26,772 nt of DNA. It comes from a virus (lineage: Duplodnaviria; Heunggongvirae; Uroviricota; Caudoviricetes). The position numbers and the translations under genes are program-made. Of this stretch, positions 12,366 to 26,772 are shown one piece after another. Each line of letters opens with the position of its first letter. The first letter of the stretch is position 1. The notes below the pieces were generated by a model. It had not been told where the DNA came from. It saw only the letters and a list, made by a program, of their open reading frames with translations, and searched no databases. Where the stretch lies: positions 1-26,772 of IMG/VR virus record IMGVR_UViG_2778260994_000003, one strand, 5' to 3'.

Positions 12366-12393
12366 GAAAAAACAAAACCCGCCGAAGCGGGTT
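12366..12393 (-). terminator. Intrinsic terminator (minus strand) downstream of hok
   Basis: AACCCGC-CGAA-GCGGGTT stem followed on the minus strand by TTTGTTTTTT. Confidence 0.7.
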
Positions 12394-12461
12394 AAGTGCG
12401 GGTGCGTTGAGAATGCCTGCCACATCAGAGGTGGCGAGGGATTTCTCCCTCGCCGGGTCTC

Positions 12462-12617
12462 TTACTCCTCAGGTTCGTAAGCTGTGAAGACAGCGACCTC
12501 CGTCTGGCCGGTTCGGATTCGTACCTCGCAGAGGTCTTTCCTCGTTACCAGTGCCGTCACTATGGCGGTTAAACAGATGACGATCAGGGCGATTAACATC
12601 GCCTTTTGCTGCTTCAT
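12462..12617 (-). CDS. hokD: Hok-family type I toxin (51 aa)
   Basis: Hand translation gives MKQQKAMLIALIVICLTAIVTALVTRKDLCEVRIRTGQTEVAVFTAYEPEE, essentially the HokD/RelF sequence as I remember it. GGAG upstream. A 19-codon upstream ORF (about 12614..12675) overlaps the hok ATG. Too short for the ORF track. Confidence 0.85.
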   Translation of the reverse strand: MKQQKAMLIALIVICLTAIVTALVTRKDLCEVRIRTGQTEVAVFTAYEPEE

Positions 12618-12828
12618 AGCCTGCTTCTCCTTGACCTTTCGGTCCGTAAGAGGCTAATCTCTATGTGTCGCATAGATATGGCCTCAGATTAATGTTAAGC
12701 GTCTTGCAGGACGCGTAATGTTAACTGGGGCTTTTCTCTATCTGCCTTTTGGTGTTCATGCCTGAGACAGATAGCCTCAAGCACCCGCAGCCATTCTACT
12801 TAACTCCCGTTACCTCGCCAATATAAAA

Positions 12829-12918
12829 TCAATCAGAAAGGCGATCCATAAGAACAACAGCAAGACAATAAATTGCCATTACAGCTGCAATAGCCAGCGC
12901 ACATTTGAGAACCAGCAC
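12829..12918 (-). CDS. Candidate 29-aa hydrophobic peptide gene
   Basis: GTG start with a perfect AGGAGG 5 nt upstream. Peptide MLVLKCALAIAAVMAIYCLAVVLMDRLSD (one TM helix). Not in the ORF track because of its length. Confidence 0.3.
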   Translation of the reverse strand: MLVLKCALAIAAVMAIYCLAVVLMDRLSD

Positions 12919-13148
12919 GACAACCTCCTGTATTGGACGTACACCAGTCCTGATAAATATGAGGCTGTCTCATCATTGATGAGATACAACTATTGGGTAT
13001 AGTTTCTGTGATTTTGTTCTGTAGAAATGGAACACAACAACCAGTCACCACCAGTACTTCTTTAAATACGCCAAGTCCGACGCAAGCTAACCTTCTAGTC
13101 CGCTTTGAGCGAAATGCGGACATGCGGGAGCATGGTTTATGTATGAAA

Positions 13149-13985
13149 CTAATGATGATAAATACCATCGTCTAAAGGGGGACCTTCAGCCGTAACCCCC
13201 GTGATACTACTTGGCGGTTCAAAGATGGCCCGACCAAATATTGCATCAAACTCTGCTTTTGTGACTGATAAGTATTGCAAGATGAGCTCTAGCAGCTCTC
13301 TGTACGTATCACAATGCCATTCAATGTGAGGACATATTCGGGAGAGAACTCTGTTCTTAAAATCATCCAGATTATTTGGGACTTCCAGCAAGTTACCAGT
13401 GTTTAATGCTTTCGACATAAACTTGTAATTGAGCATAGAGAGAACCACTACTGATACACCTTTCTCTTGCCTTAACTGATCGAACTTCTCTTGTGCTTGA
13501 AGGCTTAGCTTGGCGTATTCGCGATCTCGTTTAGAGTTGATTGGTTCGACGTACTGAAGCGGTTCGTCTGCAGCATCACCGATACGTGGACAAAAGTATC
13601 TATTCCACCAAGCCTCAAAATACCTTTTTTGGAACTCAAGGTATGTCATCCCAATAATATTGGTGTTTTGAGTGTACTGTTTAGCACCCTGCTGAAGCCC
13701 GTGCTTTGAAATAATAAATCCAATATTAGCCCCGGTTTCATGCATTACCGTGGTGAACGAATGGACCACCGTCTGTGGTATAGAACTACCCCAGTTTTTG
13801 CATTCCACAATGTATCTGATTTTGTCCACGCTCCTAACATCTGTAGCAAGAACATCCACATTCACCGAGCCACGCGGGGTTTCTAAATCGACCTCGACTT
13901 CTGCAAACAAGCCAACATTACGGAATATACGTTGGACCCCTGTCTGGAGGTCTTGCCAGTTTTCTGGTAGTGGGTCATCGATCAC
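13149..13985 (-). CDS. Mrr-like (PD-(D/E)xK restriction-endonuclease fold) N-terminal domain protein with unknown C-terminal domain
   Basis: VDVLATD...IRYIVECKNWGSS...GFIISKHG pattern (D...E-C-K) typical of Mrr/restriction-endonuclease catalytic cores. GTG start with AGGAAAAG upstream. GC content lower than the host-like genes. Confidence 0.55.
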   Translation of the reverse strand: MIDDPLPENWQDLQTGVQRIFRNVGLFAEVEVDLETPRGSVNVDVLATDVRSVDKIRYIVECKNWGSSIPQTVVHSFTTVMHETGANIGFIISKHGLQQGAKQYTQNTNIIGMTYLEFQKRYFEAWWNRYFCPRIGDAADEPLQYVEPINSKRDREYAKLSLQAQEKFDQLRQEKGVSVVVLSMLNYKFMSKALNTGNLLEVPNNLDDFKNRVLSRICPHIEWHCDTYRELLELILQYLSVTKAEFDAIFGRAIFEPPSSITGVTAEGPPLDDGIYHH

Positions 13986-14279
13986 TTCTGCTTTTCCTAT
14001 GCACTATCCGCATGCTTTTAAGACTACTTGAAGACACAAACGTCGTCATCCACTAAAAGGTTCAAATTTGAGATAAAAGTTCGTTTCTGGTACGAAGCGG
14101 ATCGTTTGAAGAACCGTGTGATCTGCTAAGAGCGAGGAGTGGACGTTCTCAAGGGATTGCTTACATCGAGGATGTATGAATCAACGGGGTGCAGGTCACA
14201 ATATATGCTATCACTTGGTTGTTGAAACGAATGCCAAAGCCTGTGACGAGCGAGGAGTAGACTTTGGCACAAAAAAAAT

Positions 14280-15233
14280 TTAAGTGTCCGATGACTTTGT
14301 TTCAGCCGCTTTATCCTCAACCAATACCCAATCTCCGGAGCTAACCTTTGTCATAAGACAAAATGGAAAGTTGTTAAAAAAATGTTCAATATCACTTGAG
14401 GGTATTTTCTCAATTTTATTTAAACAACCATCAGCTATTTGTAGGGAAATCATTTCTCTTGTAATTTTCATAAATTGATCAACATCAGATAACAACCATG
14501 TTTCATGATGAGCACCAAACAATTTGTGCGGTATATCATCAAGAATAAGATTGTCTAAATCATGTGATTTATCTTTGTTTAGCTCAAGAAGTACAAAATC
14601 AAAAAAATCAAAAAGATATGAATAGAGAAGATGAGTATAAAAGGTAAAATAGTAATCAGCAAAATTAATATTGTTATTGAATCTATTTGAATACATCATA
14701 TGAGGTTGAATCAGATCGTTTAGATCAGAGTCATATGCTTGGAAACAAATCTTTGTTTTAATATTATCATCGTTGACATAATAAGGATTTACTGTTATCC
14801 CTCCATGAACTATCTTATTTCTTATTTTATTAAAGTCCTTATACCATTTTAAATTCAAATCTGGAAATTCCTGTGCATATTGCTGGAAATGATTTTCAAG
14901 GTAATCATATTTGTTGCCATTTTTTTTAGTTGGAAAAATTAATTTATCAGCTATCTGATATGCAATATCCCATATCGTGCTGATTTTATAATAGCAATAC
15001 TCAATAGCACTAATGCTGACAATTGATGTTGCATCATGTTTTCTGATGAACTCAGCATCTTTTTGAATTTTATTAATGTAAGTAATCATATAAAACAGTT
15101 TCTTGAAATGAGTTTTTAAATTTTTTAAAAGAAACTGAAGTTTTATGTCTTCCAGTGTATCTTCTTCATACTTATTTAAGTACATAATAATTTTATAAAG
15201 TGGACTGCCAACTCTTTTTGCATGTACATCCAT
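14280..15233 (-). CDS. AT-rich hypothetical protein with a HEPN-like R-N-x3-H motif (Abi-like candidate)
   Basis: 317 aa at roughly 30% GC. Contains KIRNKIVHGG (R-x4-H with a polar residue after the Arg). GGAG RBS and its own TTGACT-17-TTAAAT promoter. Confidence 0.45.
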   Translation of the reverse strand: MDVHAKRVGSPLYKIIMYLNKYEEDTLEDIKLQFLLKNLKTHFKKLFYMITYINKIQKDAEFIRKHDATSIVSISAIEYCYYKISTIWDIAYQIADKLIFPTKKNGNKYDYLENHFQQYAQEFPDLNLKWYKDFNKIRNKIVHGGITVNPYYVNDDNIKTKICFQAYDSDLNDLIQPHMMYSNRFNNNINFADYYFTFYTHLLYSYLFDFFDFVLLELNKDKSHDLDNLILDDIPHKLFGAHHETWLLSDVDQFMKITREMISLQIADGCLNKIEKIPSSDIEHFFNNFPFCLMTKVSSGDWVLVEDKAAETKSSDT

Positions 15234-15273
15234 TATTTACTCCAATAAATCAATGCGAACATTTTAATTGAAA

Positions 15274-15302
15274 ATTTAATGCCAAAAACTTTAGTTAGTC
15301 AA
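15274..15302 (-). promoter_or_regulatory. Candidate sigma70 promoter for the HEPN-like gene
   Basis: On the minus strand: TTGACT (15297..15302), 17-nt spacer, TTAAAT (15274..15279), about 40 nt upstream of the ATG at 15233. Confidence 0.4.
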
Positions 15303-15402
15303 TAATTTATTCAAACGTCCGCTACTGGCACAAAGCAGACGCCCACTCTCACGCGAATGCTTTGCCCTTGACTTGCCAACAACCGTATCGCTTGCTCCGC
15401 AA

Positions 15403-16695
15403 CTATGGTTTTTTATTAGAATCTTCGCCACTAAATAAATTATAATAAATTGATTTTATTAGATATCTGTCAGAATCTATATGGTCAGCACGAGTAGCAT
15501 GCTCTAATGTTTCAAATGCTAGGGTTTGTGCGGCTTCAGCAAAAATTCCAGGCCAACCCTTACTCAGCATCGACAGTCCTTTAAGGACCCTTATCTGAAT
15601 TTCCCTCATACTGGCACCATCGCGCGCAACAGGTGAGAAAAAGTCTTCAAGTAGATCGTTATTCTGAAGTGGTGCAACATGTACAGAAGGATATTTCACT
15701 TCTATTTCATCAGATTTATTCTGCGCGTAAGCGGAAAGTATACGTACACCTCTGCCAATGACATCAATGGCGGTTCCAGGATCGTTCACTGCGGGGGAAA
15801 GGGCTCGGCAGGCTATTTCGGCCATGACGCTAAGACAAAATCGGGGGTCCTGAGCAAATGAACGTACATCCGAGACAATAATCGTCTCAAGTAAATCGGT
15901 GCTGATTGATGACTCCTGGCCCTGACTCAGGTACAAAACTGGCGTGGACGGATGTATGAAACTGCCCGGCTGCGCCACGAGGTATACATGACGGGGATCA
16001 TTGGTCAGCAGCTTGCTGAGTTTCACCATATCAACATATTCAACATAGCCAATCTTTTTCGGATAAACTGCAACCGTTCCTTTCGGCTGTTCATTGTTCT
16101 CAAGCCATGGATATCCGCCGAGACAGGGATTTCTTGCTCTCGCAATAAATGTTTCGATGGCCGCCTGTTCTACTTTTGCCGTTGTCTCACCAACCCTCCC
16201 CAGAGAGGTCAAATGCTGTATCCAGCGAAGCAATGTGATGAGGATTAAGGCAATGACAACCAGTGTTACAATGAATAAAATGACTCTCCCCCTTTCTCCA
16301 TAAGCTCCCATATTGAGGGCAATAATCCCTACCAGACTGAAGAGAAAAGAACCGATGAAGGTGGCCAGTACATTTTGTGTGGTGACGTCTTCAACAACTA
16401 AACGAGTAGCTCTGGGAGTCACATTAGTAGTGGCTGAACCGTAGGCTGTGACCATGATGCTCAGCGAAAATGTGGTCACTGCCAGCATACTCGATGCCAG
16501 TATGTTCAGAATGTTATCGACTGCTTCCGCACCAACCTTCACGGAAACCGACTCAGGTATCATTGATTTAAAAAGAATTGATAAAAGGGCCGTTATTATT
16601 GCGACAATTGCGAATAACGTTGCCCTGAACCATAGTTTTTTAAATGTCTGCTTCAGCATCCATTTCCAGCGTGAAATCATTCTGCATTCCCTCAT
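15403..16695 (-). CDS. Membrane protein, DUF2254-like (N-terminal TM helices plus soluble domain)
   Basis: 430-aa ORF with 4-5 hydrophobic helices in the first ~150 residues. Family name from memory. An alternative start at 16680 has a better RBS (GAGGGA). Confidence 0.55.
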   Translation of the reverse strand: MRECRMISRWKWMLKQTFKKLWFRATLFAIVAIITALLSILFKSMIPESVSVKVGAEAVDNILNILASSMLAVTTFSLSIMVTAYGSATTNVTPRATRLVVEDVTTQNVLATFIGSFLFSLVGIIALNMGAYGERGRVILFIVTLVVIALILITLLRWIQHLTSLGRVGETTAKVEQAAIETFIARARNPCLGGYPWLENNEQPKGTVAVYPKKIGYVEYVDMVKLSKLLTNDPRHVYLVAQPGSFIHPSTPVLYLSQGQESSISTDLLETIIVSDVRSFAQDPRFCLSVMAEIACRALSPAVNDPGTAIDVIGRGVRILSAYAQNKSDEIEVKYPSVHVAPLQNNDLLEDFFSPVARDGASMREIQIRVLKGLSMLSKGWPGIFAEAAQTLAFETLEHATRADHIDSDRYLIKSIYYNLFSGEDSNKKP

Positions 16696-16715
16696 ATTGC
16701 AGCCGGGATAAATAA

Positions 16716-16736
16716 ATGCCGCCTCTGTGGCGGCAT
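16716..16736 (-). terminator. Hairpin with T-rich tail 8 nt after the betT-like stop
   Basis: ATGCCGCC-TCTGT-GGCGGCAT perfect inverted repeat followed on the minus strand by TTATTTAT. Confidence 0.5.
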
Positions 16737-16743
16737 GTTGCTG

Positions 16744-25457: not shown

Positions 25458-25491
25458 CTAAAAACAATACTAACCAATGAGAGAAGCTAAA

Positions 25492-26772
25492 ATGAAATAT
25501 CCGACAGGCGTGGAAAACCATGGAGGGAAATTACGTATCTGGTTTGTTTATAAAGGTGTAAGAGTCAGGGAAAATCTGGGGGTTCCTGACACGACAAAAA
25601 ACAGGCGCATTGCAGGTGAGCTGCGCGCCTCTGTTTGTTATGCAATAAAAACCGGCGTTTTCGACTATGCAAAACAGTTTCCCTCCTCACACAATCTGGA
25701 AAAATTTGGTGAGGCCCGACAAGATTTAACCATAAAGGAACTGGCTGAAAAATTTCTGGCACTGAAAGAAACGGAAGTCGCAAAAACGTCACTCAACACG
25801 TACCGTGCCGTCATCAAAAATATTATGAGCATAATCGGTGAAAAAAATCTTGCATCGTCGATTAATAAAGAAAAATTGCTGGCGGTACGTAAAGAGTTAC
25901 TTACTGGATACCAGATCCCCAAAAGTAATTATATTGTTACGCAACCGGGGAGATCGGCTGTCACCGTAAATAATTACATGACAAATCTTTACGCCGTGTT
26001 CCAGTTTGGTGTTGATAACGGTTACCTGGCAGATAATCCGTTTAAGGGGATCTCGCCATTAAAGGAATCAAGAACCATTCCTGATCCTCTTTCACGGGAG
26101 GAATTTATCCGTCTTATCGACGCCTGCAGAAATCAGCAGGCCAAAAATTTATGGTGTGTTTCTGTTTATACAGGCATTCGCCCTGGTGAACTGTGTGCGC
26201 TTGGGTGGGAGGACATAGATCTGAAAAATGGAACAATGATGATCAGGAGAAATTTAGCAAAAGATCGTTTTACGGTACCGAAAACACAGGCTGGTACCAA
26301 TCGGGTAATTCACCTTATCAAGCCTGCAATCGACGCTCTCAGGAGTCAGATGACACTAACGAGGCTGAGCAAAGAACATATTATTGACGTTCACCTCAGA
26401 GAGTTCGGCAGAACAGAAAAACAAAAATGCACCTTTGTTTTTCAACCTGAAGTGTCAGCGAGAGTAAAAAATTATGGTGACCATTTTACCGTTGACTCAA
26501 TAAGGCAGATGTGGGACGCAGCGATAAAGCGCGCTGGCCTCCGCCACCGCAAATCATATCAGTCGAGACATACTTATGCCTGCTGGTCGCTGACAGCCGG
26601 TGCCAACCCGGCATTCATAGCAAACCAGATGGGACATGCAGATGCGCAAATGGTGTTTCAGGTATACGGGAAATGGATGTCTGAAAACAATAATGCACAG
26701 GTAGCCCTGCTAAATACACAGCTAAGCGAGTTTGCCCCAACCATGCCCCAAAACGAGGTGGCGCAAAATTAA
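25492..26772 (+). CDS. Tyrosine integrase (IntR/IntQ-like)
   Basis: N-terminus KYPTGVENHGGKLRIWF and C-terminus HRKSYQSRHTYACWSLTAGANPAFIANQMGH...VYGKWM match remembered Rac IntR. Probable start at 25492; the track ORF begins at 25477. Confidence 0.9.
   Translation: MKYPTGVENHGGKLRIWFVYKGVRVRENLGVPDTTKNRRIAGELRASVCYAIKTGVFDYAKQFPSSHNLEKFGEARQDLTIKELAEKFLALKETEVAKTSLNTYRAVIKNIMSIIGEKNLASSINKEKLLAVRKELLTGYQIPKSNYIVTQPGRSAVTVNNYMTNLYAVFQFGVDNGYLADNPFKGISPLKESRTIPDPLSREEFIRLIDACRNQQAKNLWCVSVYTGIRPGELCALGWEDIDLKNGTMMIRRNLAKDRFTVPKTQAGTNRVIHLIKPAIDALRSQMTLTRLSKEHIIDVHLREFGRTEKQKCTFVFQPEVSARVKNYGDHFTVDSIRQMWDAAIKRAGLRHRKSYQSRHTYACWSLTAGANPAFIANQMGHADAQMVFQVYGKWMSENNNAQVALLNTQLSEFAPTMPQNEVAQN

Follow-up and report, generated by a model that had tools for sequence, protein, structure and literature searches.

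Our analysis of a 26,772-nucleotide (nt) stretch of a Caudoviricetes genome (IMG/VR record IMGVR_UViG_2778260994_000003; hereafter the window, meaning the whole stretch) indicated that two neighbouring, independent accessory units, a hok/mok/sok type I toxin-antitoxin (TA) locus and a gene of 29 codons, probably stand side by side among the early-right ('nin') genes of a lambdoid (Rac/Qin-like) prophage. On sequence grounds, the core of the locus is an already known system, a prophage hok/mok/sok close to hokW-sokW; this part is textbook and adds little beyond one point of natural variation in the frames of mok. The by-product worth following is the second unit, which is likely a widespread membrane-peptide gene, conserved as coding and independent of hok. 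A first-pass annotation of the window had noted a Hok toxin with a coupled leader open reading frame (ORF) and, upstream of it, a 29-codon mini-ORF preceded by AGGAGG that might specify a second small membrane peptide, toxin-like or immunity. The analysis itself covers features of the sequence, matches to families, predicted folds, distribution and patterns of substitution; transcript ends, translation, coupling, toxicity and all other functions discussed below we infer from these.

Coding signature of the 29-codon mini-ORF

The mini-ORF probably encodes a real single-helix membrane peptide, with a mean Kyte-Doolittle hydropathy of 2.7 over residues 6-24. Homologues were searched for by tblastn, degenerate DNA patterns, exact-sequence look-up and a stop-to-stop query of 46 amino acids (aa). 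A first count of variants was biased, the search pattern having fixed the amino acids in codons 12-25, and was replaced by a flank-anchored, coding-blind sample in which copies were collected by their non-coding flanks alone (70 homologous loci, 27 haplotypes). Across these loci the mini-ORF contained neither indels nor stops; 15 synonymous variants were found against 14 non-synonymous ones (expected synonymous fraction, 0.27-0.31; P = 0.003-0.017), and variants were distributed 7/6/16 over the three codon positions. Variant density per site was 0.37 in the mini-ORF versus 0.90 in the adjacent 31-nt leader, a 2.4-fold reduction, and Nei-Gojobori ratios of non-synonymous to synonymous substitution rates (dN/dS) of 0.10-0.26 were obtained for diverged pairs (dS 0.5-1.2), against an overall figure of about 0.1-0.4. 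Replacements were nearly all conservative (A/V/T, V/I, D/E, L/F, R/H), the sole indel seen inside the mini-ORF was a deletion of one in-frame codon, and the leader indel was of 1 nt. All relatives carried a Shine-Dalgarno (SD) sequence, as AGGAGG, AGGAGA, GGGAGG or AGGGGG.

The same stretch might instead be conserved as a non-coding element (a promoter or leader, or a joint left by recombination in the phage mosaic) that is untranslated and open in one frame by chance. In keeping with this, conservation extends over the entire module (about -200 to +16) and is not confined to the mini-ORF, and at the approximately 95% identity found among most copies an open frame of 29 codons could easily be retained by chance; the peptide matched no Pfam, NCBIfam or PHROGs family, and a full-text literature search with five peptide variants and the core motif returned no paper containing its sequence. 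The synonymous excess in the coding-blind sample and the dN/dS values of the diverged pairs argue against this explanation, as do the conservative replacements, the lower variability than in the 31 nt ahead, the 3-nt indel within the frame compared with the 1-nt indel in the leader, and the presence of a strong SD at ideal spacing in every copy. We therefore consider a non-coding origin unlikely and favour a translated gene.

Several observations weigh against a translated gene with its own expression signals. The closest pair (the window and HannyBb) gave a dN/dS of 0.85 from very few changes, one diverged copy has Arg and Ser within the hydrophobic helix, and the family is restricted to Escherichia and Shigella, so that some 30 variable sites underlie the selection tests. 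No annotation by the Prokaryotic Genome Annotation Pipeline (PGAP) covered the mini-ORF among the 60 RefSeq genomes listed. In addition, the -35 position in the window reads TCTCAT, so the mini-ORF's own promoter may be weak here, and the terminator scan found no terminator between the mini-ORF and hok; expression in the window may depend on read-through. Deposits of the peptide do exist in GenBank/RefSeq under 'hypothetical protein' or 'membrane protein' (e.g., REL606).

Larger frames were also considered. Descent of the mini-ORF from a larger gene was rejected, all database homologues having 78 aa or fewer and the longer ones being mere upstream-extended ORF calls. An overlapping 111-aa ORF (12833..13168) was set aside, its upstream part not being conserved in relatives.

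Position, promoter and distribution of the mini-ORF

The stop codon of the mini-ORF (12829..12831) lies 212 nt upstream of the hok ATG and 7 nt before the hok -35 hexamer. Since it ends upstream of this hexamer, the mini-ORF falls outside the predicted hok mRNA, and the first-pass annotation's proviso that the region might simply be the conserved hok mRNA leader did not hold. As far as position and distribution indicate, the mini-ORF is a unit separate from the hok locus and separable from it by recombination. In most relatives, TTGAAT or TTGAAG (TTGAGT too) occupies the -35 position of the mini-ORF and is followed, after 17 nt, by CATATT, the hexamers spanning -66..-38; these hexamers are conserved across distant copies although the 17-nt spacers are unrelated.

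Two features of the upstream sequence were noted in passing. The window-type allele, found in 12 of 76 haplotypes, replaces the -35 TTGAAT with a perfect 6-bp inverted repeat (CTCATC-AAT-GATGAG at 12970..12984, minus strand), which also creates a plus-strand promoter-like sequence, TTGATG-16-TATAGT, at 12976..13003. Farther upstream, some 200 nt ahead of the mini-ORF form a conserved module, at whose 5' edge a conserved hairpin without a T run (GTCCGC...GCGGAC at 13098..13121, minus strand) may mark a mosaic joint.

Of 5426 complete E. coli genomes, 1958 (about 36%) carried the mini-ORF, in roughly 2200 copies, and tblastn placed it on 143 plasmids, 124 of them Shigella plasmids. Carriers include BL21/REL606, LF82, E. 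coli W/KO11FL and S. flexneri M90T. It stood directly upstream of hok in approximately 85-90% of copies. In many or most phage hok loci, similarity to the window begins only at about 12821-12803 and the mini-ORF is lacking, and one E. coli locus keeps only its 3' half. Conversely, intact copies occur where hok is missing. On the Shigella virulence plasmids (pINV), including pWR100, the mini-ORF lies about 290 nt upstream of icsP; the pWR100 copy (S. flexneri M90T; L005, 3001-3200) has an ATG start, AGGAGG and 79% aa identity. In pINV, what follows the mini-ORF is the hok promoter with only some 70 nt of decayed hok leader; the hok coding sequence (CDS) is missing, and this stretch of pWR100, upstream of a virulence protease gene, looks like a prophage fragment. 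Without hok and flanked by DUF1971, the mini-ORF was intact in 12 of the 113 viral copies and in 10 of the 63 from metagenomes; E. coli 13TMH22 and the S. flexneri chromosome likewise carried hok-less intact copies.

In E. coli BL21 (L133, 2204-2616), a deletion joins the DUF977 gene to the mini-ORF; the annotated DUF977 CDS ends inside the mini-ORF in another frame, and the SD and all 29 codons are retained.

Surveys of small proteins have been done in K-12. The mini-ORF is absent from K-12. With its coding-type substitution, its presence in roughly one in three complete E. coli genomes and its place on Shigella virulence plasmids, this unstudied gene is the useful product of our analysis, and its peptide an inexpensive, well-defined candidate for tagging and phenotype work.

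Is the mini-ORF peptide a toxin or a partner of Hok?

The product of the mini-ORF is taken here to be an uncharacterised inner-membrane peptide with a single helix, encoded by a prophage accessory gene (a 'moron') that would be expressed in the lysogen. It shares a length of 29 aa, one hydrophobic helix and a strong SD with small single-helix membrane proteins and prophage 'morons' such as YnfS, and its likeness to the 'morons' extends to a putative promoter of its own in most copies and to its insertion between phage early genes. YnfS itself, from the Qin prophage of K-12, was tried as a relative and rejected, the two peptides having no sequence similarity. The type I toxin ZorO is also 29 aa long.

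Two related proposals would tie the peptide to hok more closely. In one, it would act with hok/sok as a two-peptide cassette, being either another type I toxin or an immunity or modulator peptide related to Hok. The small size and hydrophobicity of a prophage-borne peptide and the location of most copies immediately upstream of hok are consistent with this, and a weak plus-strand promoter-like site at 12800..12829 would drive an RNA antisense to the mini-ORF. The -10 of this site (TAAAAT) is found only in the window-type allele, however, being TGAAAT in the majority of copies and absent from hok-less contexts; likewise, the plus-strand sites at 12800..12829 and 12976..13003 are both allele-specific and have no conserved partner elements. 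A search for an antisense or divergent small RNA (sRNA) at the mini-ORF yielded no conserved promoter or terminator, no Rfam match and no complementary repeat, and no terminator of its own was found, which distinguishes the mini-ORF from the small membrane-protein and type I toxin examples. The fold of the mini-ORF mRNA (12800..12952) was not unusually structured (z -0.31), and BLASTP detected no similarity between the 29-aa peptide and Hok. The mini-ORF has also outlasted hok, being intact on pINV and in the DUF1971 context, and most phage hok loci do without it. A second toxin or immunity peptide is thus very unlikely in our judgement.

The other proposal makes the peptide a membrane-active partner of hok/sok, whether as another toxin, as a helper resembling a holin or by modulating how Hok inserts, and we give it equally little credence; if true, the pair would form a two-peptide cassette for lysis timing or exclusion, of which the Shigella virulence plasmid kept the peptide alone beside icsP. 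Literature searches (icsP with hok; hokD with small proteins) returned nothing relevant, a preprint on the Pas sRNA citing hokW in its reference list only. No finding here points to a toxin or an immunity factor. Of the second membrane peptide in the first-pass annotation, then, the ORF with its AGGAGG stands as very probably a real gene, whereas its membership of the hok locus does not stand and a toxin-like or immunity role finds no support.

A probable complete hok/mok/sok locus

Taken together, the features of the toxin side indicate that hok belongs to a complete and ordinary hok/mok/sok type I TA locus of the hokW/hokD prophage subfamily, an assignment that we consider probable. The near-canonical Hok of the first-pass annotation was borne out: the 51-aa peptide matched Pfam PF01848 (HOK_GEF) at 82.9 bits (cut-off, 22) and PHROG 251 at 1.2e-32, and PGAP names the product HokD; the NCBIfam Hok subfamily model scored 46.7 bits, under its cut-off of 73. 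Rfam RF01794 ('sok') matched at full length on the hok-sense strand (106.7 bits; gathering score, 59), and because the end of the model coincides with the hok AUG, this match marks the hok mRNA leader. The -10 hexamer of the hok promoter stands 7 nt ahead of the first model position, which would place the start of transcription at about 12786, and the scan for intrinsic terminators reported one at 12376..12393. The predicted hok mRNA of 419 nt (12368..12786) folded in silico with its 5' tac paired to the 3' fbi in both the minimum-energy and the centroid structures (-165.4 kcal/mol; z -7.27); this modelled fold corresponds to the closed state reported for the full-length R1 mRNA (PMC9841398).

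The 781-nt query region had matches in 4961 of the 5426 complete E. coli genomes, where PGAP calls the gene hokD, and was matched over its whole length in 1442. An isrK-like Rfam match (12372..12453, minus strand; 28.8 bits versus a gathering score of 50) was dismissed as merely the hairpins of the hok 3' untranslated region (UTR) together with the terminator. Many non-mobilizable E. coli plasmids, some 90-100 kilobases long and from their size alone suspected phage-plasmids, also carried a locus of the hokD type, with 88-91% identity.

The short mok allele

The 19-codon upstream ORF of the first-pass annotation, with its GAGG and its overlap with the hok ATG, is correctly placed and is no new feature: by alignment it is mok itself, as a rare frameshifted allele. 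Its SD and start are homologous to annotated mok genes (alignment including that of Rac442), and in R1 mok likewise has a GAGG SD and begins exactly 19 codons ahead of the hok AUG (PMC9841398). Two nucleotides that follow ATGC in Rac442 and HannyBb are deleted from the window, at a point in the loop of the mok-AUG hairpin. This deletion shifts the mok frame, and mok (ATG at 12671..12673) therefore ends at AUGA on the hok start, its TGA stop (12614..12616) overlapping the hok ATG (12615..12617).

We compared 142 related hok loci from viral and metagenome contigs. The mok ATG was offset by 57 nt from hok, in frame with it, in 135 of the 142, and 120 of these 135 had the full 70 codons (19+51); the 'MokW' of phage annotations corresponds to this common in-frame allele (e.g., L002, L004, L214) and is an N-terminally extended, 70-aa Hok. 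An offset of 58, out of frame as in R1, was found once, and the window type (offset 56, 19 codons) in six loci sharing one haplotype. Relative to hok, mok of this subfamily is thus commonly in frame and also occurs at +1 (Rac442) and +2 (the window). Within one prophage subfamily, mok is found in all three frames, with 70 codons in frame, 68 out of frame, or 19 ending on the hok AUG, and this variation fits the experimental conclusion that only translation as far as the hok start matters. In about 10% of the in-frame loci, the mok-hok frame was shorter than 70 codons (23-68), implying premature stops inside hok and possible pseudogenes; some of these short frames may be contig ends.

Coupling to hok would be kept in the window through termination-reinitiation at the AUGA, since ribosomes on mok would still travel as far as the hok AUG. 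One could suppose instead that the frameshift has uncoupled or silenced hok translation and that the window holds a decaying, non-functional locus. The 19-codon allele is rare and of a single haplotype, its deletion sits in the loop where Sok recognition is expected, and premature stops within hok do occur in other copies of the family. The deletion also tells against an intact locus in that it shortens both the loop of the Sok target hairpin and the Sok 5' end. On the other side, the window shows no damage to the hok CDS or its SD, to tac and fbi, or to the two terminators and two promoters (that of Sok being a candidate), and the haplotype recurs in seven independent loci (six database records and the window). 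In R1, moreover, mok translation is required only as far as the hok start region, stops after the hok AUG being harmless (PMC9841398), and the window's mok is read right to the hok AUG. Decay of the locus is accordingly improbable, and we retain a complete locus with a short mok.

The repeats and palindrome as a probable Sok terminator

The first-pass annotation had also pointed to two direct repeats flanking a palindrome as a possible regulatory site. Both are present: on the plus strand, TAATGTTAA occurs at 12690..12698 and 12716..12724 and flanks GCGTC (12699..12703)-TTGCAG-GACGC (12710..12714). They are best explained as the terminator hairpin of Sok, whose complement lies in the hok leader, and this hairpin appears to be conserved throughout the prophage hok subfamily. 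The hairpin has a predicted energy of -32.2 kcal/mol (z -6.11). Its lower stem is made by pairing of the two TAATGTTAA copies, which is possible because UUAAUGUUAA is self-complementary with G-U pairs; GCGTC/GACGC makes up the tip, and a U-run (GGGGCUUUUCUCU) comes next. At its tip, the hairpin has a 16-nt insertion relative to the RF01794 consensus. The repeat-plus-palindrome element recurred in 142 of the 142 related loci, in 111 exactly and in the rest with single-base changes. A protein-binding site was set aside, since the plus-strand sequence folds as a Sok terminator with a U-run.

Hexamers homologous to the candidate Sok promoter were likewise present in all 142 loci, as TTGCCT-17-TAACCT in 135 and as TTGACC-18-TAATCT in 7. 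This promoter was assigned by eye, and a consensus promoter scan gave no call there, which counts against the assignment. A Hok locus with mok-type coupling and control by a predicted Sok antisense RNA, in line with the first-pass annotation, is supported.

Relation to known hok systems

The closest experimental counterpart is hokW-sokW of Sp5, a type I TA system whose toxin appears on prophage induction and approximately doubles phage release; HokW shares only about 44% identity with R1 Hok (PMC8621323). The window locus has about 91% DNA identity to that of hokW-sokW/Stx2 phages from promoter to 3' UTR, and 45 of the 51 residues in the Hok part of Stx2 phage I ORF-33c equal those of the window's Hok. 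Both share the leader, the palindrome-plus-repeat hairpin and the lambdoid prophage position. They differ in mok, which in the Stx2 phage starts 57 nt upstream, in frame, with 70 codons and in the window has 19 codons and its stop on the hok AUG; in the candidate Sok promoter (TTGCCT-17-TAACCT versus TTGACC-18-TAATCT); and in the mini-ORF, which is missing upstream of the Stx2-phage locus.

With R1 hok/mok/sok (parB), the window shares the GAGG SD of mok, the 19 mok codons before the hok AUG, the tac/fbi pairing and a Sok, predicted in the window, over the mok start (PMC9841398). The R1 mok overlaps hok out of frame over 70 codons, whereas that of the window stops on the hok AUG; the Sok terminator stem of the Rfam consensus is 16 nt shorter than the window's, and the role of the R1 locus is plasmid maintenance.

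The relB-relE-hokD (relF) locus of the K-12 Qin prophage is almost identical to the window in the hok SD, the CDS (one aa difference), the 3' UTR with fbi and the terminator, and the genes downstream are similar in kind. The homology reaches only 17 nt ahead of the hok ATG, and K-12 has relBE in place of tac, ucb, the mok start and the Sok promoter, all four of which the window retains (the Sok promoter as a candidate). No relB or relE cistron precedes hok in the window, where the mini-ORF and then an Mrr_cat nuclease gene lie upstream. The absence of relBE remarked on in the first-pass annotation is thus correct and no anomaly: given the point at which homology to K-12 begins, the K-12 form is a truncated derivative, and the relBE-free window locus the intact state.

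Proposed working of the locus

These features suggest the following model. TTGGCG-17-TAGAAT would drive a hok mRNA of about 420 nt from about 12786, and the full-length transcript would be held closed to translation by pairing of the 5' tac with the 3' fbi. Trimming from the 3' end would render it translatable from mok (GAGG and the AUG at 12673), and ribosomes on mok would open the hok start. Sok, a plus-strand RNA of about 70 nt, would block this by covering the mok SD and AUG. The 2-nt deletion puts the window's mok in the third frame with UGA overlapping the hok AUG, and coupling should persist by termination-reinitiation. By analogy with hokW-sokW of Sp5, the locus would be silent in the lysogen, and loss of Sok on induction would allow Hok to be made, thereby helping lysis and phage release. 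The 29-codon gene would act as a free-standing unit with a strong SD and, in most relatives, a TTGAAT-17-CATATT promoter of its own.

Prophage setting and feature coordinates

The features of the mini-ORF and of hok share the minus strand and so read in the direction of early-right transcription. On that strand, the early-right operon passes through a cII-like gene, a replication gene (19545..20621), DUF977 and a cargo block, and then through the mini-ORF/hok region, a DUF968/HNH gene, RusA, a DNA methylase, two tRNAs, holin and endolysin. Positions 12380..13124 have 99.6% identity to an E. coli prophage; given this identity and the recurrence of the repeat-palindrome element in every related locus, the features of hok and the mini-ORF are not due to chance. 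Their coordinates are compiled in Table 1.

Table 1. Coordinates of the hok/mok/sok locus, the mini-ORF and selected prophage genes in the window
Feature	Position	Strand	Basis
hok intrinsic terminator, AACCCGC-TTCG-GCGGGTT and T run	12366..12393	-	Terminator scan
fbi element CUCAACGCACCC in hok 3' UTR, complementary to tac with one bulge	12400..12411	-	Fold; conserved in K-12 hokD
hok CDS, 51 aa, MKQQKAMLIALIVICLTAIVTALVTRKDLCEVRIRTGQTEVAVFTAYEPEE	12462..12617	-	ORF list, Pfam, PHROGs
mok, short allele, 19 codons, MRHIEISLLRTERSRRSRL	12614..12673	-	Read from sequence and alignment
hok mRNA 5' leader, 172 nt (tac, ucb, Sok target region, mok start, up to hok AUG)	12615..12786	-	Rfam RF01794
Candidate Sok promoter, TTGACC, 18-nt spacer, TAATCT	12631..12660	+	Read by eye
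Predicted Sok antisense RNA, ~70 nt, spanning mok start codon and SD	~12666..12738	+	Promoter position, hairpin with U-run, R1 and hokW-sokW paradigm
Sok terminator hairpin (predicted)	12680..12732	+	RNA fold
mok SD, GAGG, 8 nt ahead of mok ATG	12682..12685	-	Sequence; motif and position as in R1 mok (PMC9841398)
tac element GGGUGCUUGAGG, putative mRNA 5' end	12775..12786	-	First Rfam model positions; pairs with fbi in minimum-energy fold
hok promoter, TTGGCG (12816..12821), 17-nt spacer, TAGAAT (12793..12798)	12793..12821	-	Promoter scan
Mini-ORF, 29 codons, GTG start, small hydrophobic peptide MLVLKCALAIAAVMAIYCLAVVLMDRLSD	12829..12918	-	ORF list
Mini-ORF SD, AGGAGG, 5 nt ahead of GTG	12924..12929	-	Sequence
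Mini-ORF promoter-like site, -10 CATATT (12956..12961), -35 position TCTCAT (12979..12984)	12956..12984	-	Conservation in relatives; scan made no call in the window
Mrr_cat restriction-endonuclease-like nuclease (cargo block; next gene upstream of mini-ORF)	13149..13985	-	
317-aa protein without family match (cargo block)	14280..15233	-	
DUF2254 (cargo block)	15403..16695	-	
BCCT betaine/carnitine/choline transporter (cargo block)	16744..18747	-	
CI-like repressor	21317..22090	+	
RecE-like exonuclease	22656..25136	+	
Integrase	25477..26772	+	

The cargo block (13149..18747, minus strand) is inserted between DUF977 and the mini-ORF. In the closest E. coli relative, an S1 peptidase takes the place of the window's 317-aa protein and Mrr_cat nuclease.

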